Positions 14,477-54,289 of a DNA stretch of 64,000 nt are shown one piece after another. The notes under the pieces are model-generated. The model saw only the letters and a list, made by a program, of their open reading frames with translations. It searched no databases and was not told the origin of the DNA. How positions within the stretch are numbered: the first letter of the stretch is position 1; each line of letters begins with the position of its first letter. The position numbers were made by a program, and so were the translations under genes. This DNA is from Bacteroidales bacterium (GTDB lineage Bacteria > Bacteroidota > Bacteroidia > Bacteroidales > FEN-979): NCBI GenBank assembly GCA_028706295.1, contig JAQWBQ010000011.1:10506-74505 (forward strand), given 5' to 3'.

Positions 14477-14593
14477 GGGTAATCCATTCGCTGGTCAGGG
14501 TAGTTCAAAGCTATTAATATTTTTAGAAAATTAAATCGATAATACTGTTCCATTAAGAATCAGAACCTGAAATCGCTGATTAAGAAACAGGAA

Positions 14594-15960
14594 GTTTCAA
14601 TCCACGCCCACCACGAGGGGTGCGACCATATTCAGTTCGCAAGTTTTGCTTTACAACTGTTTCAATCCACGCACCCCTCGCGGGGTGCGACACGATCAAC
14701 TCGACAACATGGAAGCTGACGGGCGTTTCAATCCACGCACCCCTCGCGGGGTGCGACATCCGACGCCGGTTAAATACATGGGCCCGCCGGTGTTTCAATC
14801 CACGCACCCCTCGCGGGGTGCGACTTTTGCAGCGTCTTTTAATCCCAATGCCGCTTCACGGTTTCAATCCACGCACCCCTCGCGGGGTGCGACAAAACGG
14901 TGTTTTTACGGTTATGGTTTTCTTAAAGTTTCAATCCACGCACCCCTCGCGGGGTGCGACGCGAAGCGATCATAAAAACAGATGTACTGATTGCAGGTTT
15001 CAATCCACGCACCCCTCGCGGGGTGCGACACCGGACTGATTCGCTTTGGTTGACTTATTCTTCGTTTCAATCCACGCACCCCTCGCGGGGTGCGACGGAG
15101 CCGCTTCCGGGGTTCCGCCGTTGTTTTTTGTTTCAATCCACGCACCCCTCGCGGGGTGCGACTCTTTCGGCCGATGGATCCAGCTTACCGGAGTTGTTTC
15201 AATCCACGCACCCCTCGCGGGGTGCGACTCACAGGGAAAATCTGATAATTCTCTTTAAGGTGTTTCAATCCACGCACCCCTCGCGGGGTGCGACCGATTA
15301 CGCTTGTATTCGTTACCGCAATCCTTTGTTTCAATCCACGCACCCCTCGCGGGGTGCGACGTTGAGCGTCATCGAAGTTCGCCCGGCGGTATCGTTTCAA
15401 TCCACGCACCCCTCGCGGGGTGCGACACCAAATCAAACCCCAATAACCATGAAAACAATCGTTTCAATCCACGCACCCCTCGCGGGGTGCGACCAATAGT
15501 CGCAATTCGTTTTATGAGTATGAGAAGGTTTCAATCCACGCACCCCTCGCGGGGTGCGACAAAAAGCAAGGGAGCGCGTGGCATTGCACTACGAGTTTCA
15601 ATCCACGCACCCCTCGCGGGGTGCGACATAGTCCGGCCGAACGGAAAATAGTTTGAGGAGTTTCAATCCACGCACCCCTCGCGGGGTGCGACAATGAAGA
15701 TGATCCTGATACGGACTATACCGATGTTTCAATCCACGCACCCCTCGCGGGGTGCGACTCAGGTTAAGTCAAACAATCAAAACTAATAAGCCATGTTTCA
15801 ATCCACGCACCCCTCGCGGGGTGCGACGAGTTCTTTCCCTGTCTGCAGAGTATCGAGATAGGTTTCAATCCACGCACCCCTCGCGGGGTGCGACGCCTAT
15901 GCCGAGGCTGATGATGAAACCAGGAAGGTTTCAATCCACGCACCCCTCGCGGGGTGCGAC
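14594..15960 (-). CRISPR. Type I-C CRISPR array, 21 repeats of 33 nt and 20 spacers of 32-36 nt
   Basis: The plus-strand repeat is GTTTCAATCCACGCACCCCTCGCGGGGTGCGAC. Its minus-strand form, GTCGCACCCCGCGAGGGGTGCGTGGATTGAAAC, has the I-C hallmark ATTGAAAC 3' end and a 7-bp GCACCCC/GGGGTGC stem with a GCGA loop. Repeat starts are 14594, 14659, 14725, 14792, 14861, 14928, 14997, 15064, 15130, 15196, 15262, 15328, 15394, 15461, 15528, 15595, 15660, 15726, 15795, 15862 and 15928. The repeat farthest from cas2 (14594) has 4 mismatches, consistent with a trailer-end repeat. Confidence 0.97.
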
Positions 15961-16127
15961 TGTCAAACTATAAAATGTTAAAAAACAAATACATGTAAGC
16001 AGATTCCTGCGAACCTGGTTTTAAAAAATCTTTTTGCATTCAAAATCCCATCATAATTCACGTAAATGACTTATTATGAGGTGTTGCGAGTTCTCCGGAG
16101 TTTTACTGTTCACTCCAGGTTCGCGCA
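15961..16127 (-). promoter_or_regulatory. Putative CRISPR leader
   Basis: A 167-bp AT-rich non-coding stretch lies between the cas2 stop and the first perfect repeat. Orientation is inferred from the repeat polarity and the degenerate distal repeat. Confidence 0.6.
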
Positions 16128-25718: not shown

Positions 25719-25960
25719 CGCAGGATGGACGCAGGATGAACGCAGGAAGAACACAGGATCAATGTAGTATCGACGAAGAATCTACGCGGTATGGACGCGA
25801 GATATGTGCTGGATGGATTCTAGATCAGCACGCAATCAACGCAGGATTGAGGCAAGATTGACCCAAGATTGAGCCAAGTTCAACGCCGGATTGACGTACC
25901 ATAGAGACAGTATGGACGAGGAATCAAAGCAGGATGTTCGCAGAATGGTCGCGGGATGAC
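25719..25960. repeat. Array of 22 contiguous, indel-free 11-bp units (consensus about CGCAGGATKGA)
   Basis: Units read directly from the sequence: cgcaggatgga, cgcaggatgaa, cgcaggaagaa, cacaggatcaa, tgtagtatcga, cgaagaatcta, cgcggtatgga, cgcgagatatg, tgctggatgga, ttctagatcag, cacgcaatcaa, cgcaggattga, ggcaagattga, cccaagattga, gccaagttcaa, cgccggattga, cgtaccataga, gacagtatgga, cgaggaatcaa, agcaggatgtt, cgcagaatggt, cgcgggatgac. The AT dinucleotide at unit positions 7-8 is kept in 20 of 22 units. Confidence 0.85.
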
Positions 25961-25974
25961 GCTGCCCTTTCAGA

Positions 25975-27270
25975 CTACAAAATGATCTGTTCAGGCCAGG
26001 GATTTGTTTTTGAAGTTCCCCAGAGCTTGTTGATATAATCGATCGAAAAGAAATCTTCAAAAGCATGAATCCAATAGGCGCCTCTGTCGGTCAGATTGAT
26101 CAGGTCCTGTCCGTTTTGAAGAAATCCAATTTTTTCCATCAGTGAAAAATATGTTCCATATTCTTTATCAATACTTTGGCCAAACCTTCGCTGGAAATCA
26201 CTTTTTCTGAATTTGGTTTCATAAATTCTCCAATAGAGCCACCCGGCCATTTGTGCTTTTTCTGATAAATCAAAGGATAAAGCAATGGGGGAGTTGTTGT
26301 TCTCCATAGCCCTGATATATTCTTTCACATTGAACGTGTTCACATAAAACATGTTTTTAAGATAGGAACTGCCACTGGCGCCAATTCCCAGGTATGAAGG
26401 AACCGTGACTGAACAATATTTATCCATTCCCTTTTGCGTGAAAGCCCACACCGATGAGCGTTCAAATCGTGACCCGTAAAAAATCTCTTCAATTACTTTG
26501 AGAAACTTTCTTCGGCGGAACATCGTTGAAAGGATATTGCGTTTATCAGGCAACTCTTTACCAAAGCGGGTATATTGAAATCTGAATAGTGGATACGTGG
26601 CTGCCTGGTTGATTCCAAGCTTAATCATGCTGGAGATGGCCTGCTCTACCTCAGATATCGTTTGGCCCGGTAAATCAAATATAAAATCGATGTTTAAACA
26701 CTCGAAATTTTTCCCGGCAGCTCTGCTCACAAAATCCTTAACCTCATTTTCAGTATAAGGCCTTTCCAATAATTTTAAATGCCTGTTCTGCAATGCTTCA
26801 ACGCCGACACTTAAGTATTTTACACCCAATGATTTCAGGGCATCAAGGTTTTCATTGCTCAGATGGTTGGGGTGACTTTCGATATGAATAGAACACCTCA
26901 TATTGAAATTTTTAAAAACCGCATCAAGAATCTCTTCCAGCCCCTTACCCAACATGGTTGTCGGGGTGCCACCTCCGATGTAAAAACTTGAAATGGGTTT
27001 CCCTGCCATCAGGGCTGCGTATTTTTTAACCTCCCTGACAACCGCTGCTGCATAATTCCGGGCAAGATCTTCATGAAACAGCTCTTTGTTATAGGGGCAA
27101 TAAGGACATATTTGGTTGCAAAACGGAATATGAAGATATAATCCTGTTTCGTCAAGCTCTTTAAAATTTTGAGCTATGGATGAATCTTGCGGAATAATAT
27201 TCTGAAACTTAATTTCATGTTGCCCAAAGAATTTTCCGGCTATCTTATTTCGAATAATTTCTGAAATCAT
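25975..27270 (-). CDS. HemN-like radical SAM enzyme (oxygen-independent coproporphyrinogen III oxidase family / class C radical SAM)
   Basis: CxxxCxxC motif 'CNQICPYCPY', then 'FYIGGGTP' and a HemN-type C-terminal domain. The track ORF extends to 27384, but that extension translates the TCGTAAA repeat element (MFNRKFYLIVNRKS...). The ATG at 27270 (MISEIIRNK) is the more likely start. Confidence 0.8.
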   Translation of the reverse strand: MISEIIRNKIAGKFFGQHEIKFQNIIPQDSSIAQNFKELDETGLYLHIPFCNQICPYCPYNKELFHEDLARNYAAAVVREVKKYAALMAGKPISSFYIGGGTPTTMLGKGLEEILDAVFKNFNMRCSIHIESHPNHLSNENLDALKSLGVKYLSVGVEALQNRHLKLLERPYTENEVKDFVSRAAGKNFECLNIDFIFDLPGQTISEVEQAISSMIKLGINQAATYPLFRFQYTRFGKELPDKRNILSTMFRRRKFLKVIEEIFYGSRFERSSVWAFTQKGMDKYCSVTVPSYLGIGASGSSYLKNMFYVNTFNVKEYIRAMENNNSPIALSFDLSEKAQMAGWLYWRIYETKFRKSDFQRRFGQSIDKEYGTYFSLMEKIGFLQNGQDLINLTDRGAYWIHAFEDFFSIDYINKLWGTSKTNPWPEQIIL

Positions 27271-27364
27271 TTCTGTTGATATCTTCTGATTCGATCCTCC
27301 GTGGCTTGATCCGGGATCCGGGCCGAAATTTACGATTAAACAAGATTTACGATTGACGATTAAA

Positions 27365-27404
27365 TAAAATTTACGATTGAACATGATTTACGATTTACGA
27401 TTGT
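27365..27404 (-). repeat. TCGTAAA-heptad element, copy A (core, reverse orientation), inside a cluster of ATTTACGATT-like units at 27326..27427
   Basis: The minus strand reads ACAATCGTAAATCGTAAATCATGTTCAATCGTAAATTTTA, identical over 40 nt to 34679..34718 on the plus strand. The surrounding region holds at least 5 further direct copies and 1 inverted copy of TTTACGATT. Confidence 0.9.
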
Positions 27405-27472
27405 ACTATTTTTAATCATAAATCGTAGTTTGAAGGTTTTTTCAAGACAAATCAATTTTAACAGACTCCCGG

Positions 27473-28351
27473 TTAAAAATATTTCAGTGCATTTAAAAGC
27501 GCCCCTGGACGCAATTTCAAGGCCTGGTTGATTTCTGCATAACTCAGATACCCGCAGTCATGGCATACCTCACCATTATTGTTTTCCCTGCAACAATTAT
27601 AAAACCGGCCCTCTTCGTAAACCCTGCAGATCTTTAAGTTTTTTTTCCAGTCATTTCGGATAGCAGATTTCAACCCGGTCGTGGAATTCAGGATTTTATA
27701 TTTTCTCTTCAGATTCAGGAGCTGATGCAGGATTTCATTTCTGACCGGTGCATCCAGATACAACTTATCGTATCCGTAATACGGTGTGTGGAAATAAAAA
27801 AAGGTGCCTTTAATTTGAGGGATTTTATCGATGAAGGCACAGAAATCAGCTATCTCAGATTTATTTTCAGAATTGATGGTATAGTTGATGAAGACCGAAG
27901 GGTGTGTTGATTCCCGGATATTCTTCATGATGGTATCGAATGACCTTCCCCTGAGCTTATCATGCGTGTCTTTCAGTCCGTCAACGCTGAGAAAAACCGT
28001 ATCGGCATGTGAAATAAGCGGTAATGTTCCGTTGGTATATACGACTACAGTGTAATAGCCCTTTTGGTGAGCATAATCAATCACATCGTTTAAGGTGTAT
28101 GCGTGATCATTCCAAAGAAGCGGCTCCCCGCCTTCCAGGTAAAGACACCGTCCTCCGTCGGTATAAAACTTATCAATAATGTCAAGGGTTTCCCCGAATT
28201 TCATCTTCGCTTCCGGTCTTTCGAAAATGGTACAATGCCGGCATCGTAAATTACATTTGTTATGTAAAACCAATCCGCATATTAATGGTTTATTGCGATC
28301 ATGAAACCAGTAATTAAAAATGTATTTTATGCCAAATATGATATATTTCAT
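27473..28351 (-). CDS. Radical SAM protein with a C-terminal Cys-rich (twitch/SPASM-like) motif
   Basis: 292-aa ORF with 'CNLRCRHC' (CxxxCxxC), 'LEGGEPLL', and C-terminal 'CRVYEEGRFYNCCRENNNGEVCHDCGY'. Confidence 0.8.
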   Translation of the reverse strand: MKYIIFGIKYIFNYWFHDRNKPLICGLVLHNKCNLRCRHCTIFERPEAKMKFGETLDIIDKFYTDGGRCLYLEGGEPLLWNDHAYTLNDVIDYAHQKGYYTVVVYTNGTLPLISHADTVFLSVDGLKDTHDKLRGRSFDTIMKNIRESTHPSVFINYTINSENKSEIADFCAFIDKIPQIKGTFFYFHTPYYGYDKLYLDAPVRNEILHQLLNLKRKYKILNSTTGLKSAIRNDWKKNLKICRVYEEGRFYNCCRENNNGEVCHDCGYLSYAEINQALKLRPGALLNALKYF

Positions 28352-28465
28352 TTACACCTTTTATGCGAATAGGTTGGAAATTCCATCAGGTTAAATTTAA
28401 AGTATACGGATCCTGTTGTCAAGGCTATGTACAAACATAGATTCAGACTAAATAGAACTCAGGCC

Positions 28466-28499
28466 GATTTGACAAATCTTTCTTTATTATTGTCAAATC
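28466..28499. terminator. Perfect 10-bp inverted repeat, GATTTGACAA-(14 nt)-TTGTCAAATC; possible terminator or operator
   Basis: Read directly from the sequence. It lies about 80 nt downstream of the stop of 28576..29865 and upstream of the radical SAM gene. No clear U-tract follows, so the function is uncertain. Confidence 0.25.
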
Positions 28500-32856: not shown

Positions 32857-33666
32857 TCAGTATACTTTGTTTTCTAATATAAATTTTATCGGCAGATTAA
32901 ATTGAACCCTGACCGGTGAACCTCTTTGCCTGCCCGGTATCCATTTGGGCATCATTTTAACCACCCTCACCACCTCTTCGTCACACCCGCTGCCAATACC
33001 TTTCAGAACCTTGATATTGCTCAGGCTCCCTTCTTTTTCAACCACGAAAGTAACAAACACCGTCCCACGAATATCATTTTTTACTGCCGATTCGGGGTAA
33101 TGAATATTATTTGATAAAAATATGAGTCGGGCCTCTTCTCCGCCTGGGAAACGGGGTTGTTCTTCCACAACGGTGAAAATTTCGTCAGTTTCATAGGAAA
33201 CCGTGCCGGTATCGGCCGGGATATCTTTTGCTGATAATATTTTTTTAAGGGTATCAACCCGGATTTTTTTTATTAAGAATTCGGTATTCGTGACAGTTTT
33301 TTTCTCCAGATCAAAGAACAGATGATTTTCAACGCCTTTTTTAACCTGGATTTTATATTTTAAAATTTTATCCCGGGCCGTGACACGGATCTGGTATTTG
33401 GCCGGAGGAATATACTCAATGATCAGGGCTTTATCGGTCTTTGGGCACTTGATGTTCAAACCGGGAATTTCAACCTCAACTTCAACCGGATCGGAATTGA
33501 TCACAATATTTCCATAAGGTGGGAAAAACAATCGGTTGTAAACGGCTATTGGTTCAGGATCTATGCTAAAAATCTTGTATGATACTGTGTCGGGCTTCTG
33601 TCCGTATACGGTAAAATTAATACAAAGCAGTAACAGGAAACAGATCGCATTTGATTTCATGGTCAT
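32857..33666 (-). CDS. TonB C-terminal domain protein
   Basis: 269-aa ORF. The C-terminal 'EEQPRFPGGEEA...YPE.A..N.I.GTVFVTFVVEKEGSLSNIKVLKGIG.GCDEE..RVVK.MPKW.PG.Q.G.PV.V' is a canonical TonB-C/energy-transducer domain. It starts 1 nt after the upstream gene ends. Confidence 0.8.
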   Translation of the reverse strand: MTMKSNAICFLLLLCINFTVYGQKPDTVSYKIFSIDPEPIAVYNRLFFPPYGNIVINSDPVEVEVEIPGLNIKCPKTDKALIIEYIPPAKYQIRVTARDKILKYKIQVKKGVENHLFFDLEKKTVTNTEFLIKKIRVDTLKKILSAKDIPADTGTVSYETDEIFTVVEEQPRFPGGEEARLIFLSNNIHYPESAVKNDIRGTVFVTFVVEKEGSLSNIKVLKGIGSGCDEEVVRVVKMMPKWIPGRQRGSPVRVQFNLPIKFILENKVY

Positions 33667-34463: not shown

Positions 34464-34678
34464 ATCTGCATGGATAAATGGATTGTTGTAAACATGCTAC
34501 CATAGTCCTGACATCCAAATTTATTAAAAATATGTTTTTCTTTCTTATATTTTAAAAAGTTTAATTTGCCTTGCCATTCACAAGCCTGAAAACAAATTTT
34601 AGGTTGTAGTTTAATTTTAACACGAAAAGATATAAGATCATACCTTAAGATGATAGCTGTTAATCCGAAATCGAATCT

Positions 34679-34718
34679 ACAATCGTAAATCGTAAATCAT
34701 GTTCAATCGTAAATTTTA
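34679..34718 (+). repeat. TCGTAAA-heptad element, copy B
   Basis: ACAATCGTAAATCGTAAATCATGTTCAATCGTAAATTTTA, in the intergenic region between 33729..34463 and 34771..37575. It is an exact 40-nt match to the reverse complement of 27365..27404. Confidence 0.9.
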
Positions 34719-34770
34719 AACAGCCTTTAAATGATTCGGGTGTCAGGTAATACCCTCCCGGTTGTATTAT

Positions 34771-46755: not shown

Positions 46756-48795
46756 ATGCGGTATTCCATCCTTCTTTTAGTTTTTACGGCAATTCTGGCG
46801 CTGGCTTTTCTGCCGCGCCTGCTGGCTCAGGGCAAAAAATCCGTTGGCCGGGTTTTTCCCGCTTCCCTTGCATATAATCCCTTTGAAACCTATCCCGTCG
46901 CTCTGGAGGAAGATCTGGGAGTGACCTGGTCGGAAACCAGGACAGTCTGCAAGATATGGTCGCCTGCGGCACAGGCAATGAAGCTGAAACTCTACCGGAC
47001 TTCCACCGGGAATGACCTGATCGGGGAATTCAAATGCCGGAAAAACGACATGGGGGTTTGGTCGGTCATACTCGAGGGCGACTACCAAGGCCGCTATTAC
47101 ACCCTTCAGGCAAAGTTTAAAGGGAAATGGGGCAGCGAAGTGCCCGACCCCTATGCCCAAGCAGTAGGGGTGAACGGCATGCGCGGACAAATCATCGACC
47201 TGAACGAAACCGATCCGCCCGATTGGGATCAGGACCGGTCGCCGGAGTTCCGCAATCCCACCGATGCCGTGCTCTATGAATTGCATGTACGCGATTTTTC
47301 GGTGGCGCCCAATTCGGGGATGACAAACAAAGGCAAATTCCTTGCCTTTACCGAAACCGGAACACGCAACAGCCACGGACAAATTACGGGAATCGACCAC
47401 ATCGCCGAAATGGGGGTGACCCATGTACATTTGCTTCCTGTTTTCGATTTTTGCAGCATCGATGAATCAAAGCCGGAAGTTCCGCAATTTAACTGGGGGT
47501 ATGACCCTCAGAATTACAACGTCCCCGAAGGATCCTATGCTTCAAACCCTGAAGATGGTAAGGTTCGCATCAGAGAATTCAAGAAGATGGTCCAATCGAT
47601 GCACCGGAAAGGGCTGCGGGTCGTGATGGATGTGGTTTACAATCATACCGGACGGACCGGAAATTCCAATTTCAATCAGTTGGTCCCGGGATATTATTAC
47701 CGCCAGTGGCAAAAGGATGGAACGTACAGCAATGCCTCGGCCTGCGGGAATGAAACCGCGAGCGACCGGGCCATGATGCGAAAATTCATGATCGAATCTC
47801 TGCAATACTGGGTTAAGGAATATCATGTCGATGGTTTTCGCTTCGACCTGATGGCCATCCATGACATTGAAACGATGAACCTTATTTCGGCAACACTCCA
47901 TACCATAAATCCTTCCATCCTCCTCTACGGGGAGGGATGGACCGCCGGCGATTCACCACTGCCTGAAAACTTCCGGGCCCTGAAACAGCACGCCCGGGAA
48001 CTGGATCGGATTGCCGTTTTCAGCGATGACATCCGCGATGGCATCAAAGGAAGCGTGTTTGACGAAAAGAGTACCGGCTTTGCAAGCGGGAATCCAAGTA
48101 TGGCCGAGTCGGTCAAATTCGGAATCGTTGCGGCCGGCGACCACCCGCAGATTGACTTTACACAGGTGAACTACTCTAAAGAACCTTATACCACCAGTCC
48201 CGGCTCGGTGATCAACTATGTCTCCTGTCATGACAACCAGACCCTGTATGATAAATTGAAAGCCTCCCGCCCCGATGCCGATGAAGCGACCCTGCTGAAA
48301 ATGCATAAACTGGCCAATACCATTGTACTGACCTCGCAGGGGATCCCGTTTTTGCATGCCGGCGTGGAAATGAAAAGAACCAAAAACGGCGAACACAATT
48401 CATTCAATAAACCCGACTCGGTCAACCGGATCGACTGGGATTGGAAATTTGAGAACCGCGACCTGGTTGACTTTTACAAAGGTTTGATAAGCCTGCGCAA
48501 ATCACACCCCGCCTTTCGAATGACCACCCGGGAGATGATCAGCGAAAACCTGGCCTTTCTGCCCGTCAAAGATCCACAGCTTATTGCTTACGTGATCGGC
48601 AACCATGCGAACCAAGATCCATGGTTAAGAATTCTCGTGATCGTTAATGGTTCCGAAGAACTTAAAAAAATCGATCTTCCCGCCGGGAACTGGAGCGTAG
48701 CCCTGATGAACCATCAATTTCCCGATGCAGCACCAATGGTGTCAGGCTCCCTTGTGATTGAGCCGGTTTCGGCTACAATCCTTTTTCAGAAATGA
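46756..48795 (+). CDS. pulA: Type I pullulanase (GH13)
   Basis: 679-aa ORF with a signal peptide and GH13 conserved regions 'VVMDVVYNHT', 'GFRFDLM', 'YGEGW', 'YVSCHDN'. The N-terminal CBM48-like region is typical of pullulanases. Confidence 0.88.
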   Translation: MRYSILLLVFTAILALAFLPRLLAQGKKSVGRVFPASLAYNPFETYPVALEEDLGVTWSETRTVCKIWSPAAQAMKLKLYRTSTGNDLIGEFKCRKNDMGVWSVILEGDYQGRYYTLQAKFKGKWGSEVPDPYAQAVGVNGMRGQIIDLNETDPPDWDQDRSPEFRNPTDAVLYELHVRDFSVAPNSGMTNKGKFLAFTETGTRNSHGQITGIDHIAEMGVTHVHLLPVFDFCSIDESKPEVPQFNWGYDPQNYNVPEGSYASNPEDGKVRIREFKKMVQSMHRKGLRVVMDVVYNHTGRTGNSNFNQLVPGYYYRQWQKDGTYSNASACGNETASDRAMMRKFMIESLQYWVKEYHVDGFRFDLMAIHDIETMNLISATLHTINPSILLYGEGWTAGDSPLPENFRALKQHARELDRIAVFSDDIRDGIKGSVFDEKSTGFASGNPSMAESVKFGIVAAGDHPQIDFTQVNYSKEPYTTSPGSVINYVSCHDNQTLYDKLKASRPDADEATLLKMHKLANTIVLTSQGIPFLHAGVEMKRTKNGEHNSFNKPDSVNRIDWDWKFENRDLVDFYKGLISLRKSHPAFRMTTREMISENLAFLPVKDPQLIAYVIGNHANQDPWLRILVIVNGSEELKKIDLPAGNWSVALMNHQFPDAAPMVSGSLVIEPVSATILFQK

Positions 48796-48841
48796 AACAG
48801 TAGAATAACATATGTGTTCTTGAAAACCTGGATTTGAATTG

Positions 48842-50863
48842 ATGCAGCGAAAAAAACCAAAAAACATTGCCTCCCCGAAAAAGCCGGATCAGGGATCATC
48901 TAGGAACCTGGAGGAACCCACGAAACGGTTGACGTGGATCATCCTGGGCGGGATCATCGCTCTCACCTTCCTGGTTTACATCCCCACTGTACAAAACGGT
49001 CTCCTGGCTTGGGATGATGAACCCTACCTCACGAAAAACCAGTTGGTGCAATCAGGAAACTTATGGGAACTGTTTACGCAACCGGTGATGGGTAACTATC
49101 ACCCGTTGACCATGCTGACACTGGCGCTCGAATACCGGTTGTTCGGACCTGCCCCTGCCGGCTATCACGGGGTGAACCTGTTGTTACACCTGATCAATGT
49201 GGTCCTGGTTTTTATCGTAATAAAACGGTTGAACAGGGGGTCGGTGGTGGCGTTGGTAGCAGCCCTGCTGTTCGGGATACATCCCTTGCACGTCGAATCG
49301 GTGGCCTGGGTCGCTGAGTTGAAGGATCTGCTTTATACCTTGTTTTTCCTCTTATCCTGTATCTTCTACCTGAAATATCTTGAAGACAAATCCCGAAAGT
49401 GCTTTTTCATCACCCTGCTGTTCTTTACGGCTTCTTTGTTGTCGAAGGCAATGGCTGTATCGTTGCCGGTAGTTTTACTCCTGATCGACTATTTCAGAGA
49501 CAGAAAATTCAGCAAAATCGTTTGGCTTGAGAAAATTCCTTTTTTTGTGCTGTCGCTCCTCTTCGGTATCATTGCCATTATTGCCCAGGGATCAACCGAA
49601 GCCATCGCGGACCACGCCCGTTTCTCCTTCTTTCACAGGATCGTTTTTGCATCCTGTTCCTTCCTTTCTTATTTGGGTAAACTGCTGCTGCCCGTCAACC
49701 TGAGTGCCTTCTATCCATATCCTGTACGCAGCGGCGATCTGATCCCGGGATCCATGTACCTGTGCCTCTTCATCATGGTCGCCCTGGTTGCGGTGATGAT
49801 ATATTCCTACCGGCGCTCCAGGGATCTTTTCTTCGGGTTGAGTTTTTTCACCGTCACAATTTTTTTGGTACTTCAACTGCTGCCGGTCGGGAATGCCATG
49901 ATGGCCGATCGCTACAGCTACATACCGTCTATCGGTATCTTTTTTCTGGCTGGCATGGGTGTCAAATTCATGTGGGATAAAGGATATCGTTATGCTATCG
50001 GGGCACTGTTGATCGCATTTACGATATTTTTCGGAGTACAAACTTTTTTACGCTGCACCATATGGAAAGATGATCTCACCCTGTGGAATGATGTGATTAA
50101 AAAAGATCCGGCTGTTGAATACGCCTATAACAACCGGGGTATTGTGCTGATGAACCAGGAGCGTTACGACGAGTCGGTGAGCGACTTTACCCGTGCCATT
50201 GAACTAAATCCGGTTTACCCGATTGTCTTTTTGAACCGGGGTATTGCACGCAGCCGCCAGAATAAACATGCCGAAGCGATTGCCGACTTTGACCAGGCCA
50301 TCAATCTGAAGCCCGAAAATCCCGATGCCTGGTTTAACCGCGGCGTGGCGCTCCGTAATGTGGGAAGAAATGAGGAAGCGCTTCGGGATTTTCAGCGAAC
50401 CCTTGAATTGAAACCCCAATTCCCGATGGCTTACTATAACCGGGGCACACTGTACATGAACCTGAAACGCTATCCGGAAGCCATCGTCGATTTTACCAAC
50501 GCGATAAAGGCCGATCCTGCATTCGCCGATTCGTACCTCAACCGGGGTGTAGCGCATATGATCGGAAATGAAAAAAAGGAGGCTCTTCAGGACTTCAACA
50601 AGGCAATCGACCTGAAACCCGGATTTATCAATGCCTACTATAACCGTGGGAACTATTACCTTTCCGAAAAGGAATACCATGAAGCCATCGCCGACTACAC
50701 CCATGCCATCGAACTGAAAACCGATTACTCAGCAGCCTATTACAACCGGGGACTTGCTGCTTTCTATAAGGGCAACAAACAAGCAGCCTGCGATGATTTC
50801 AAGAAAGCGGCCACCCTGGGCTTCACCCCGGCAAAAACCGCCATCTCACAATTGTGTAAGTAG
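48842..50863 (+). CDS. Polytopic membrane protein (PMT/GT39-like N-terminal domain) with C-terminal TPR repeats
   Basis: The N-terminal ~400 aa hold about 10 TM helices. The C-terminal part has 8 or more tandem 34-aa TPR units ('A..DF..AI.L.P....AY.NRG'). Confidence 0.8.
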   Translation: MQRKKPKNIASPKKPDQGSSRNLEEPTKRLTWIILGGIIALTFLVYIPTVQNGLLAWDDEPYLTKNQLVQSGNLWELFTQPVMGNYHPLTMLTLALEYRLFGPAPAGYHGVNLLLHLINVVLVFIVIKRLNRGSVVALVAALLFGIHPLHVESVAWVAELKDLLYTLFFLLSCIFYLKYLEDKSRKCFFITLLFFTASLLSKAMAVSLPVVLLLIDYFRDRKFSKIVWLEKIPFFVLSLLFGIIAIIAQGSTEAIADHARFSFFHRIVFASCSFLSYLGKLLLPVNLSAFYPYPVRSGDLIPGSMYLCLFIMVALVAVMIYSYRRSRDLFFGLSFFTVTIFLVLQLLPVGNAMMADRYSYIPSIGIFFLAGMGVKFMWDKGYRYAIGALLIAFTIFFGVQTFLRCTIWKDDLTLWNDVIKKDPAVEYAYNNRGIVLMNQERYDESVSDFTRAIELNPVYPIVFLNRGIARSRQNKHAEAIADFDQAINLKPENPDAWFNRGVALRNVGRNEEALRDFQRTLELKPQFPMAYYNRGTLYMNLKRYPEAIVDFTNAIKADPAFADSYLNRGVAHMIGNEKKEALQDFNKAIDLKPGFINAYYNRGNYYLSEKEYHEAIADYTHAIELKTDYSAAYYNRGLAAFYKGNKQAACDDFKKAATLGFTPAKTAISQLCK

Positions 50864-53290
50864 GTGCGTGTTCACTTTTTCACAAAGAAGGGATGAAACG
50901 ATCATCGACAACCGTTTCAAAGGATAGGGCAGGGAGGTATAACAGACCATCGGAAGCACCCATTCGAGCAATGCAACGTAATAAGGAACTGAATTCTGAT
51001 CACCTTCAGCACTGGTAAAGGCATATTCCCTCATTTTAATGGTCAGACCGGCATTCTTCGCCACCTTTTCAGGATGTTTCCCTGCATAGATGATCTCCGG
51101 CCGGTCACCCAGGTTTTTACATTCATAAAAACGCCGGATAAATTCAAGGTAGGATTTCATGTCCGACTCATTCTCAATGGGAGCATTGTCGACCAGAAAA
51201 ATGGCCTCGAGCCGGGCAAAATCAGAGACGACCGACCGGGGACGGGTTTCCGAAAAATCAATCAGGTAAACATTCCGGTTCTCATCAAGAAGAATATTCT
51301 GCATGTTCAGATCTCCATGGCAGATACCGGTATTGTAATCCAGGCTCCATTCACGGTTCCGTTCGTATTCCCGTTTTAAAAACCAGTAGGGGTTCAGGAT
51401 AGGCCGCCCGGACTCGGAAATCTTCAGGTACTGCATCTCATCTGAAATGCCAAGTATTTCCTCCGCCGTTTTGTAAATATGCGGGAAAAAGGTCCGGGTG
51501 GGATCATGATCCTTGAATGGAAATATGGTCTTCTTAACCGGTTGACCGTACCAGGGCTTGAGGATCTGCAGAAATATTTTATCGAATAAGGGTTCCAGGA
51601 AATCCAGGTCCGAGTCATGGTAATAATGAGTAAGCCATTTCAACTGACTTGCCTCCCCGCCGATCCCGACAAAATTATAGCGGAGCGCCATGGAATCTCC
51701 GAAACGCTCTGTTCCCAACACCACCGCACAGTTGTTGAAAATATACGGAAGGGCATATTTCTGGCATCGTTCCGATTCCCGGGTGATCAGGGCCCGACTT
51801 GCGACTTTGAGTACCGTTGGCCGCATCTTTCTTCCCTCATGGTCGTAAGAGGTAACATGATAGGTTTGCGCCGAATACCCTCCGTGAAGGGGGTTCAGTA
51901 CCAGCCGGGAGGAATCGGTGTATAAAAGCCTTGCCAGGAATTTCTTGTTCGGTTCCAGCATCATGCCGGGCGCTGTCTCAATGATCACCCTTTTACCGGC
52001 GCCCTCGGCAATCGTTTCCGGTGAAAACAACCAGATAAAAGGATTTTCAATAAGAAGACCTGCCTCCGCCGGTACAACAGCCGTGATATTTTCAAAAGTC
52101 AGATGCCGGTCGATGAATTCGCTGAGCAGGGTAGTTTCCGTTATTTTATCAACCTTGACCAATTGGAAGGTGATCCCTGCAAACCGGTATCCCGGTTCGA
52201 TCACAGAGCCGTCTGATCCACCGATCGGATTGCCACCGGCTTGCTTTTCAGCGTCTTGTCTGCCCCAAAACCAATCGGATACATTGAAACAGTTCCCTGC
52301 TGCAGTATTCACTTCGGCATCCGTTGCCATAAGGAGTACATTCAGCGAGGGATGTTCCGCATGATGACTTACCGCTACCAGGTAAAATATATTCCCCGGC
52401 AACATGTTTTTGTCCCGGATTGTCTGAAGAGCCCGGGTTAACTGTCGTAAGTTTACGACACCCTCTGTTGCCATTCTCAATGTCCCGGATGGCGTGTTTC
52501 CGAATGAAAGCGCGTAACGCACCGGAAAACCAGTCTTTACGGGATCCGCAATAATCCTGAAATCGGGATCCGAGGCAGGATCCGCCGGGATAAACCCGGT
52601 GCAGGGACCGATCGTGACAAAAAAATCATCACCCGGGAAACCGGAACCATCAGAAACTGCACCGTAACCTAGCGCACCTTCCAGATCGCAACAGCTCAGA
52701 ATCTCTGCCTCCGTATTGATTTCCGCCTTCACAGAATGACCTCCGTTTGTCCTGTAAACGAAAATCAGCTGATCCACCGGGATAGCTGTCTCCTCGTTGG
52801 CGCCCTTTTTTGCTGCATGGATGACCGCCAGCGCACTTTCAACATCGGATGCCATGGGCAGAATCCGTTGAAGTCCGGCCATTTCAAAAATGTGTTGAAC
52901 TTCTAAACTTGCACCGACAATAAATAATTGAAATTGATTAGGTTGCAGCCGCTTCTGGGCCGATAAAAGGACCCTGATACCGGCGCTCGACAAATACGAA
53001 CATTCAGAGAGATCAAGGATAATATCACGGGCTTCCCCGGTCAGGGTAATTAATACCTGGTCCAAATCCCTGCTGGTGTTTCCGTCAAGCCTCCCGAAAA
53101 GTTTTATAACCCGTTTTTTTTCGTCAGTATTGAGTTCCATCCCTGAGATGATTTGTTTGATAACAGTCAAAAGTACAAAAAAACCGGCTCCCGCGAAGGC
53201 ACTGTGAATGACCCTGTGTAAATCGCCTCCTGTCAGCGTCACCACATTTTGTACCTTTGCAAAATCTGAAACATCATTTGTTGTTTTCAT
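50846..53290 (-). CDS. Multidomain protein: N-terminal STAS domain, unknown central region, C-terminal aminoglycoside-phosphotransferase/protein-kinase-like domain
   Basis: The ATG at 53290 (MKTTNDV) is preferred over the TTG at 53344, which would translate the repeat element. STAS-like region: 'IILDLSECSYLSSAGIRVLLSA...QLFIVGAS..VQHIFEMAGL'. Kinase-like catalytic region: 'ICHGDLNMQNILLDENRNVYLIDFSE'. Confidence 0.7.
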   Translation of the reverse strand: MKTTNDVSDFAKVQNVVTLTGGDLHRVIHSAFAGAGFFVLLTVIKQIISGMELNTDEKKRVIKLFGRLDGNTSRDLDQVLITLTGEARDIILDLSECSYLSSAGIRVLLSAQKRLQPNQFQLFIVGASLEVQHIFEMAGLQRILPMASDVESALAVIHAAKKGANEETAIPVDQLIFVYRTNGGHSVKAEINTEAEILSCCDLEGALGYGAVSDGSGFPGDDFFVTIGPCTGFIPADPASDPDFRIIADPVKTGFPVRYALSFGNTPSGTLRMATEGVVNLRQLTRALQTIRDKNMLPGNIFYLVAVSHHAEHPSLNVLLMATDAEVNTAAGNCFNVSDWFWGRQDAEKQAGGNPIGGSDGSVIEPGYRFAGITFQLVKVDKITETTLLSEFIDRHLTFENITAVVPAEAGLLIENPFIWLFSPETIAEGAGKRVIIETAPGMMLEPNKKFLARLLYTDSSRLVLNPLHGGYSAQTYHVTSYDHEGRKMRPTVLKVASRALITRESERCQKYALPYIFNNCAVVLGTERFGDSMALRYNFVGIGGEASQLKWLTHYYHDSDLDFLEPLFDKIFLQILKPWYGQPVKKTIFPFKDHDPTRTFFPHIYKTAEEILGISDEMQYLKISESGRPILNPYWFLKREYERNREWSLDYNTGICHGDLNMQNILLDENRNVYLIDFSETRPRSVVSDFARLEAIFLVDNAPIENESDMKSYLEFIRRFYECKNLGDRPEIIYAGKHPEKVAKNAGLTIKMREYAFTSAEGDQNSVPYYVALLEWVLPMVCYTSLPYPLKRLSMIVSSLLCEKVNTHLLTQL

Positions 53291-53322
53291 TCGTAAATCG
53301 TAAATCATGTTCAATCGTAAAT
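53291..53322 (+). repeat. TCGTAAA-heptad element, copy C
   Basis: TCGTAAATCGTAAATCATGTTCAATCGTAAAT, an exact 32-nt match to copies A and B. It abuts the start codon of the minus-strand STAS/kinase gene and lies 65 nt upstream of the plus-strand aldo/keto reductase start. Confidence 0.9.
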
Positions 53323-53386
53323 AGAAAGATTTTTCACCTGACAAACTAAACTTAAACAGACCCTTAACTATATAGGGAATTCATCT

Positions 53387-54289
53387 ATGAACAGAGTAAT
53401 GCTCACGGCTGATTTCGGTTTATCGCGGATCGTGCATGGACAGATGCGTATGGCCGGATGGAAGCTGACCCGCCCTGAGCTGCAATCTTTCCTGGAAGAA
53501 CTGGTCGATCTGGGTGTGACCTCATTCGATCATGCCGATATTTACGGAAACTACAGTTGTGAAACCCTCCTCGGTGAAATTCTGATGGGAAATCCCGGAC
53601 TCCGCAACCGGATTGAGATCATTACCAAGTGTGGAATCCTGTTGAAATCAGATAAATTTCCCGGCCGGAAGATCAAGTATTATGATTATAGTTTCGATCA
53701 TATCATCGCTTCGGTCGAATCTTCGTTGAAAAATTTCAGGACCGATCATATTGAGTTGCTCCTGCTCCACCGGCCTGCCCCCTTCTTTGATCCGGAAACG
53801 GTTGCCCGCGCTTTCAGAACTTTGAAAAAAGATGGTAAGGTACTTCACTTCGGGGTTTCCAATTTTACCCCTTCACAGTTTGAAATGCTGAATGCATTCA
53901 CCGATGAGAAACTGGTCACCAACCAGGTTGAAATTTCTCCCCTTACCTTGGAACATTTCGACAATGGAAACATCGATTTCTTTCTCAGGGAAAAAATCAA
54001 ACCCATGGCCTGGTCCCCGCTGGGTGGCGGCCGGATTCTCAATCCCTCCGATGACAAGGGATCCGGCGTTCTGATGACCCTGCGCGCAATTGCCGGTGAG
54101 ATGCAGGTGCGATCGGTCGATCAGGTAATTTATACCTGGCTCCTGAAACACCCGGCCGGAATCATCCCGGTGGTGGGTTCCGGAAACATCAACCGCATCA
54201 AAACGGCCTGCGAAGCGTTGGATCTCGACATGAGCCTCGAACAATGGTACCGGATCTTTACGGCCTCCCGCGGAAAGGAATTGCCATGA
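53387..54289 (+). CDS. Aldo/keto reductase family oxidoreductase
   Basis: 300-aa ORF with 'FDHADIYG', 'LLLHRP' and 'GVSNF', typical of AKR (YdhF-like) proteins. Confidence 0.85.
   Translation: MNRVMLTADFGLSRIVHGQMRMAGWKLTRPELQSFLEELVDLGVTSFDHADIYGNYSCETLLGEILMGNPGLRNRIEIITKCGILLKSDKFPGRKIKYYDYSFDHIIASVESSLKNFRTDHIELLLLHRPAPFFDPETVARAFRTLKKDGKVLHFGVSNFTPSQFEMLNAFTDEKLVTNQVEISPLTLEHFDNGNIDFFLREKIKPMAWSPLGGGRILNPSDDKGSGVLMTLRAIAGEMQVRSVDQVIYTWLLKHPAGIIPVVGSGNINRIKTACEALDLDMSLEQWYRIFTASRGKELP

Follow-up and report, generated by a model that had tools for sequence, protein, structure and literature searches.

A string of 32 nucleotides, TCGTAAATCGTAAATCATGTTCAATCGTAAAT, is found without a single difference at three distant sites in the stretch of DNA analysed here (the window: 64,000 nucleotides, C107:10506-74505 of a 3.99-Mb, 149-contig draft genome of a Bacteroidales bacterium, referred to as G000). 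What is this string, and why are its copies identical? A sequence-only reading of the window had offered three answers: an operator shared by one regulator, a small dispersed element of the REP or MITE type, or a conserved 5' leader.

Copies of the 32-mer in the window

The exact matches are at 27369-27400(-), 34683-34714(+) and 53291-53322(+), and are called copies A, B and C below. Shuffles of the window are expected to contain 0 matches to the 32-mer, and none was produced; the positions were reproduced, and the exact 32-40-nt identity that had been noticed at these sites is therefore real and beyond chance. Between copies A and B the identity covers 41 nt (27365-27405 vs 34678-34718), and copy C matches them over 35 nt at 97% identity. 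The 32-40-mer is a module of unit, spacer and unit, AATCGTA-AATCGTAAAT-CATGTTC-AATCGTAAAT, and AATCGTAAA is found 11 times in the window vs about 1 expected. The mini-ORF MFNRK that had been pointed out in each copy is indeed present, but it runs into a stop after only 5-6 codons and is merely part of the repeat unit. The parts of the three copies are as follows.

27326-27404 (-): copy A, array of five AATCGTAAAT units with spacings of 17, 24, 17 and 7 nt
27405-27468 (+): copy A, opposite arm, holding an inverted unit ATCATAAATCGTAG and a 'long module', both degenerate, as well as the terminus TTTTAACAGACTC (27456-27468)
34593-34678 (+): copy B, internal segment, homologous to the right half of 230-255-bp two-ended composites (C96 17072-17324, C75, C101 and G010:C203)
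34679-34714 (+): copy B, a heptad and two 10-mer units at 17-nt spacing, containing the exact 32-mer
34715-34730 (+): copy B, IS-type terminus TTTAAACAGCCTT (34715-34727) and then TAA
53264-53290 (+): copy C, left part, a G000-specific segment ending in TTTTCAT
53291-53322 (+): copy C, the exact 32-mer
53323-53366 (+): copy C, right part, with the 28-nt 'long module' AGAAAGATTTTTCACCTGACAAACTAAA, the terminus CTTAAACAGACCC (53351-53363) and then TTA

The array of copy A holds a fourth, degenerate copy of the 32-mer, with 3 mismatches, at 27328-27359(-). Array and opposite arm together form a foldback-like element of about 143 bp, one end of which is degenerate; no IS-type terminus is present on the outer (low-coordinate) side of copy A. 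The element is placed 56 nt upstream of the likely start, at 27270, of a HemN-like radical-SAM gene. The ORF as called (25975..27384, minus strand) begins at the internal ATG of the element and is thus artificially extended, just as had been suspected. The later ATG at 27270 looks the more plausible start, and the radical-SAM domain begins about 56 residues into the ORF when this is truncated to start at 27300.

The neighbours of copy B are a FISUMP (Fib_succ_major) gene and a hybrid histidine kinase gene, and the domain context agrees with these assignments. From its parts copy B can be read as the right half of a two-ended composite element. Copy C, which in the same way can be read as the long-module end of a composite, adjoins the start codon of the STAS/kinase gene (CAT, 53288-53290) and is 65 nt before an aldo/keto reductase ATG at 53387, as described earlier, the reductase ATG that is conserved in the sister genome being 53399 and not 53387. 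The left part of copy C supplies the reverse-strand ATG of the STAS/TCAD9-kinase ORF, and TTTTCAT precedes the units at several other copies.

An assembly artefact as the source of the identity is ruled out by the same elements being found at orthologous sites of an independently assembled sister genome. Paralogous flanking genes as its cause are ruled out by the array-adjacent proteins, which are unrelated to each other.

A repeat family across the genome

Mapping over the whole draft gives 7 exact copies of the 32-mer, 20 copies with up to 3 mismatches and 34 with up to 6, and the core 10-mer AATCGTAAAT has 251 exact occurrences vs about 10.6 expected. A repeat family of moderately young age, whose members carry 0-6 mismatches in 32 nt, would be expected to contain a handful of exact copies, and selection is not needed to account for them.

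The units form 110 clusters of at least two, with spacings of 7, 16 or 17 nt, and nearly always on a single strand within a cluster. A crude ORF map places 90 of 102 clusters in intergenic DNA, and some lie between convergent genes. A genome-wide bias toward 5' UTRs or promoters is not seen, placement being inconsistent: 40 of the 88 assignable clusters face the 5' end of a gene and 48 face a 3' end. The 17-nt-spacing class, which includes all three window copies, faces a gene 5' end in 13 of 20 cases, at 12-93 nt; two of its clusters overlap a called ORF start, and conserved flanks are carried along with the units. The composites have in common an internal segment of about 125 nt. A small-protein gene inside the composite element (MKTNDVW...) was considered and rejected, its ATG and reading frame not being kept in C96.

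The 16-nt-spacing class has CATGTC or CTTGGC as its spacer and is read as ATTTACGATTG. In 27 of 41 cases the cluster comes 0-20 nt behind the stop of an unrelated gene, and the clusters of this class sit inside mosaics of other 7-8-nt arrays, in which a fixed order of the repeat blocks was judged by eye only. Five unrelated proteins (G000 C9 9645, C81 28523, C87 5392, C87 18571 and C124 7326) end in (R/Q)TN*, and in each case this ending is coded by the array head CGRACAAATTGA, so that repeat DNA supplies the last codons and the stop of these proteins.

Arrays of period 7 (308) and period 8 (266) dominate the tandem-repeat spectrum of the genome, and 65-77% of them are intergenic, with 77% for period 7. 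The commonest heptad array is AAATCGT, with 45 arrays. The family has the features of heptanucleotide simple-sequence repeats, in that its 7-nt units are in tandem, intergenic and more frequent than chance, their copy number is unstable in close relatives, and they are clade-restricted.

Comparison with related genomes

A search among 25 congeners and 16 other genera finds the module abundant only in G000 and its sister species G010. The pattern of two units separated by 6-7 nt has 70 matches in G000 and 52 in G010, 0-1 in each of 23 other congeners and 0 in the 16 other genera, the reversed-pattern control giving 0. Plain TCGTAAA tandems (pattern TCGTAAATCGTAAAT) have a wider distribution, with 2-493 matches in 19 of 25 congeners and 0-1 in each of the 16 other genera; here the reversed-pattern control is 0 everywhere.

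G000 and G010 were compared through flanks that are 90-99% identical. For 31 clusters of G010 with mappable flanks, units are present in G000 at 23 sites and at the other 8 there are none. The number of units at orthologous clusters often differs (6 vs 5, 4 vs 3, 9 vs 2), and the stop-proximal mosaics are unalignable despite flanks that are 97-99% identical. The window copies themselves behave differently from one another. Copy B is also found at the orthologous site in G010. Copy A is within a 2.7-kb block with two radical-SAM genes (window 25795-28480) that is missing from G010, where the corresponding interval is 118 bp long. Copy C has no counterpart at its orthologous site: about 111 nt (53264-53374) are replaced there by 48 unrelated or degenerate nt between flanks that are 97-98% identical, so that the difference is a replacement and not a simple insertion.

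It is worth adding some observations on other parts of the window and on other congeners. The left edge of the 2.7-kb block falls inside an 11-bp CAGGAT repeat array (25719-25894). The gap between ORFs 46756..48795 and 48839..50863 (about 48796-48838) is occupied in G010 by a two-ended mini element of 103 bp, AAGTCTGTTTAAA...units...AAAACAGTCTC followed by TAA, whereas all that G000 has there is a degenerate 32-nt remnant of the long module. At 32954-33520 a run of 567 bp finds no alignment in G010, where the neighbouring aligned blocks are only 36 bp apart, perhaps because of an indel in ORF 32857..33666 or next to it. At 14578-15967 a repeat finder detected a CRISPR array with 21 copies of the repeat (GTTTCAATCCACGCACCCCTCGCGGGGTGCGAC). 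In another congener (L080, G003:C135 58200-59700) three successive spacers of one membrane-protein operon bear the heptad module 5-7 nt before the next ATG, and heptad arrays end 4-8 nt before mature tRNA 5' ends at L181 and L184 (G011), at L088 (G006) and at G000 C38 107-123.

An IS5-type terminus beside the units

All three window copies are followed, in the correct orientation, by TTTAAACAGNCTC (27456-27468, 34715-34727 and 53351-53363). Across the genome this terminus follows many copies, either directly or after the 28-nt 'long module' AGAAAGGTTTTTCACCTGACAAACTAAA, and it is then usually followed by TTA or TAA. Among 16 unit-adjacent termini with up to 2 mismatches, TTA or TAA comes next in 12, whereas in the genome as a whole these triplets have a frequency of 2.7%. 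By itself the terminus pattern shows no enrichment in the window (8 matches vs 5 expected), and it is only its fixed position beside the units that is informative.

An IS5-family transposase gene is present in G000 (C87 30042-30671, with PF01609 at 95 bits), cut by the contig end, and the end of its insertion sequence reads TAA followed by GAGACTGTTTAAAATTC... This insertion sequence, at C87 30024-30733, stops at the contig edge and is therefore probably present in several copies, or was collapsed during assembly; C110 8221-8373 also contains a short piece of a transposase gene. Complete relatives of about 920 bp in other Bacteroidales, with 85-92% amino acid identity, have the inverted repeats GAGACTGTTTAAAAATT / GAATTTTAAACAGTCTC, and identical TTA or TAA on both sides in 9 of 13 examined. 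A full-length relative, L093 (86% amino acid identity), matches NF033580 at 220 bits, which identifies an IS5-family transposase; we take the insertion sequence to belong to the IS1031-like group of that family (about 0.9 kb, GAG... ends, 3-bp TNA duplication). The end of the repeat, AAATTTTAAACAGTCTC, agrees with the end of the insertion sequence, GAATTTTAAACAGTCTC, at 16 of 17 positions.

Some copies have such an end on both sides, and these have counterparts in G010:

C95 20360-20412: two-ended copy of 53 bp, with TAA/TAA flanks
C96 17072-17324: two-ended copy of 253 bp

Matching flanks are found only in the C95 copy, others having TCA/TAA, CAA/TAA and CTG/TTA. The repeat therefore has much that defines a MITE: it is short (53-253 bp when two-ended) and multi-copy, it is non-coding apart from chance ORFs of 5-6 codons, its terminal inverted repeats match those of an autonomous insertion sequence, and the cognate transposase gene is in the genome, on C87. 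A clean empty site, with terminus and TTA/TAA duplication, was sought at the sites that are polymorphic between G000 and G010, and none was found: copy C and four others are replaced or ragged, the indel edges being ragged at the four. At C107 1474-1541 the 'empty' allele of G010 retains ...CAGACTC followed by TAA; at C71 the indel exceeds the size of the element; at C47 only the terminus and units are missing; and an 82-bp indel specific to G010 is flanked by a GGCAA direct repeat and has no IS terminus. The insertion sequence contains no AATCGTAAAT units, and its common part with the repeat is the 16-17 terminal nt only. Moreover, most clusters have no IS terminus, chiefly those of the 16-nt-spacing class located 0-20 nt after stops, so that transposition by way of this insertion sequence cannot account for all of the family. 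Copies are numerous in G010, yet the draft assembly of that genome has no more of the transposase gene than a fragment.

We conclude, with a probability of roughly 0.6, that the 32-40-mer is a module of a lineage-specific MITE-like repeat, which has an IS5-family end and an interior derived from a TCGTAAA microsatellite that is scattered through the intergenic DNA of the whole genus. The module is repeated genome-wide and confined to one lineage; it terminates in a sequence identical to an insertion-sequence end, and its presence and structure differ between sister genomes. In the three window copies, and in about 16-25 others, it lies directly inside an IS5-family terminal inverted repeat (...AAATTTTAAACAGNCTC). 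Given the terminus beside the units and the TTA or TAA that usually comes next, the window copies would be whole or partial non-autonomous members of the MITE-like repeat. The MITE half of the REP- or MITE-like proposal is thus upheld, by the genome-wide copies, the IS5-type termini, the TTA/TAA flanks, the lineage restriction and the differences between sister genomes. The REP half falls away, since a hairpin palindrome of the REP/BIME type was looked for and the units of a cluster were all on one strand, with a fold no better than that of shuffles.

The ends of the element suggest active transposition. An IS5-family transposase acting on the terminus could have spread the copies, in which case recent insertions would be bounded by GAGNCTGTTTAAA...TTTAAACAGNCTC with a duplicated TTA or TAA. 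Slippage, deletion and recombination among the units would then have reshaped them, and the exact identity of some copies would reflect recent common descent rather than selection on a binding site. The element may bring close to a gene ATG codons, a stretch that is A/U-rich and without structure, and possibly a promoter-like TAAATTTA box that points outward, and local side effects on neighbouring genes are likely.

Operator, leader or slippage?

If one transcription factor were to bind the 32-mer and co-regulate the adjacent genes as a regulon, this would fit with the high sequence conservation, with the direct-repeat architecture, and with the location of copies A and C in promoter-proximal DNA. 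The rest of the family speaks strongly against it. More than 100 clusters are beside unrelated genes, many of them 0-20 nt from stops and some between convergent genes, and some even code the last codons and the stop of unrelated proteins. The number of units varies freely. The module is missing at the orthologous copy-C site in G010 and from 23 congeners, and the motif is not retained upstream of orthologues in congeners. The looked-for signs of a regulon site, namely orthologue retention, a fixed promoter position and related targets, were not found. On placement, lineage restriction and lack of orthologous conservation the shared operator is rejected, and we consider it very improbable. Equally hard to believe is that the copies arose site by site from a favoured heptamer, as a pure microsatellite with no copying between sites. 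Heptamer and octamer arrays do dominate the tandem-repeat spectrum and unit numbers do change between sister genomes, and slippage is part of the explanation for that change; but it cannot recreate one non-periodic string of 32-41 nt (7+10+7+10 nt) at 7 sites, nor the 28-nt long module, the 13-nt terminus and the internal segment of about 125 nt at many sites.

The 5' leader needs more discussion. As a structured or conserved leader it finds no support: an Rfam search of the window and eight composite loci matched no family, and the RNA of the module folds worse than shuffles (z +1.0 for copy B, +2.3 for copy C), and is therefore unstructured. That same lack of structure is compatible with a different role in translation initiation, in which the module would serve as a standby site, A/U-rich and lacking structure, or would be bound by a general RNA-binding protein, much as has been suggested for TAACTGA repeats, and its spread would be favoured by helping downstream expression. 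In support of this, most arrays in G011 stop 4-10 nt before an ATG, placement is alike in G003 (in the three successive intercistronic spacers), G012, G013, G004 and G014, and several cases in G000 fit as well; there is also a published precedent in the TAACTGA repeats just upstream of start codons (PMC4679880). However, the proportion of G000 clusters facing a gene 5' end is only that given above (40/88), and the 16-nt-spacing class is mostly after stop codons, in the opposite orientation. Of nine array-bearing genes in G011, only one retains TCGTAAA units upstream of its G000 orthologue, and several of the nine G000 orthologues bear different unit families at the same place. In addition, two G011 arrays stop 4-7 nt before tRNA genes, and although this is again a site just before a gene start, it speaks against a purely translational role. 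A role in initiation is therefore unlikely, although it is a better candidate than the operator. The best-supported view is that the 32-mer belongs to a family of selfish or filler repeats, dispersed and evolving fast, rather than being a site of control.

Association with IVP genes

There are 8 genes for IVP/four-helix-bundle proteins (PF05635; TIGR02436) in G000, a family which also includes Avd of diversity-generating retroelements (PMC10053308). Six of the 8 have inverted arrays on both sides, built from a 7-9-nt unit that is private to the gene:

C134 149-445: array-bracketed IVP gene
C64 6550-6867: array-bracketed IVP gene
C96 19365-19682: array-bracketed IVP gene
C100 2595-2909: array-bracketed IVP gene
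C16 10374-10667: array-bracketed IVP gene
C31 4425-4715: array-bracketed IVP gene

The unit families of the six are TCGTAAA, GCGATTAG, GCGGACAA, TTTCAGRG, GACTGATT and GGTGCCAT, and these are the families that compose the stop-proximal mosaics elsewhere in G000. At C134 the IVP gene lies between ATTTACGATTG arrays and AATCGTAAAT arrays, one kind on each side. IVP genes with TCGTAAA arms are found also in G010, G011 and G002, and the four TCGTAAA-armed proteins form one clade (UFboot 93; as clustered in 0 of 500 shuffles). Out of 25 congeners, 18 have a relative of the TCGTAAA-armed IVP (at least 47% identity), and 17 of these have tandems; 5 of the 7 without a relative are without tandems. The co-occurrence has a one-sided Fisher p of about 0.002, calculated by hand and not corrected for phylogeny. 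Variants of the unit are also common to the arms and the dispersed arrays: TCGTATA is found in both in G011 and in neither in G002, and the form made of the 10-mer plus CATGTC is found in both in G000 and G010.

These observations point to a relationship, of a correlative kind, between cassette and arrays. A tentative explanation, which we rate above a role in initiation but still as doubtful, is that the heptad arrays are the offspring or partners of one IVP cassette, and that the cassette or its protein seeds or maintains the gene-less arrays, the IS5 end being a secondary fusion. The armed architecture, which recurs in four congeners, the private arm families of the five other IVP genes, the single clade, the co-occurrence and the species-specific unit variants common to arms and arrays all argue in its favour. 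Against it, the co-occurrence lacks a correction for phylogeny; G024 has 51 tandem matches without a close IVP relative, and G025, from another genus, has a 50%-identical IVP and almost no tandems. There is no known copying mechanism, and slippage-driven homogenisation alone could make arms and arrays similar. When the window copies were examined as IVP-gene foldback cassettes, none of the three was found to flank an IVP gene.

One can speculate further, at the same low level of confidence, that each 7-9-nt intergenic family is the private arm repeat of one IVP (Avd-like) cassette, itself an autonomous foldback. The IVP protein would be a sequence-specific factor that seeds arrays beside stops and starts, arms and arrays would evolve in concert, and the 32-mer would be offspring of the TCGTAAA-IVP cassette, later welded to an IS5 end. 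The literature searched gave nothing that links IVP genes to heptamer arrays, and a literature search for the repeat sequence strings gave unrelated primers only. The link to the IVP cassette is the most interesting lead from this work.

Relation to known repeats and significance

Modular mosaics with a variable number of internal subunits are well known from intergenic DNA, as pneumococcal BOX, E. coli BIME and Neisseria Correia elements, and these can supply promoters or alter neighbouring transcripts. The present repeat resembles them in its modular build, variable subunit number and intergenic location; it has no sequence relation to them, and the TCGTAAA module is not a hairpin. Like MITEs derived from the IS5 family it is small and non-coding, with many dispersed copies in AT-rich intergenic DNA near gene starts and stops, terminal 16-17 nt that are those of an insertion sequence, TTA/TAA flanks and a related transposase gene in the genome. 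It differs from them in its interior, which is unrelated to the insertion sequence and made of a heptad microsatellite, in being found mostly as one-ended fragments, in having no clean empty site, and in that most members of the family have no IS end.

The other close comparison is with heptanucleotide simple-sequence repeats. TAACTGA repeats in Beggiatoaceae, Cyanobacteria and some Bacteroidetes are located just upstream of start codons, with unknown function (PMC4679880); that paper also reviews long SSRs with 5-11-nt units (Mrazek et al. 2007) and cyanobacterial STRRs, and GGGAATC heptamer repeats are described in Xanthomonas (PMC4692102). All are alike in having a 7-nt unit, in being intergenic and clade-restricted with copy numbers that shift in close relatives, in often being just upstream of starts or just after stops, and in having no known function. 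The unit TCGTAAA and the host clade are different here. So is the fact that the heptad is frozen as a compound unit of 16-17 nt, which is copied between sites as a fixed string of 32-41 nt, and that part of the TCGTAAA family is joined to an IS end. There is also a likeness to the cassettes of 23S rRNA intervening sequences with their IVP (S23p) genes, since the TCGTAAA heptad forms inverted arms round one IVP gene in at least four congeners. In contrast to these, the window copies have no IVP gene and are not in rRNA, and the link between cassette and arrays is correlative.

For annotation, the element explains a falsely extended radical-SAM (HemN-like) ORF, it bears the start codon of the STAS-kinase gene, and the last codons and stop of several proteins come from repeat DNA. 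It also provides a caution, namely that exact identities between intergenic regions should not be read as regulatory sites. With it, a genus of Bacteroidales joins the few clades known to be rich in heptamer repeats, whose function is unknown, and adds a heptamer repeat that hitch-hikes on an IS5-type end. Finally, the pairing of one heptad family with one lineage of IVP/Avd-like proteins is testable, and could help to explain the origin of such repeats.
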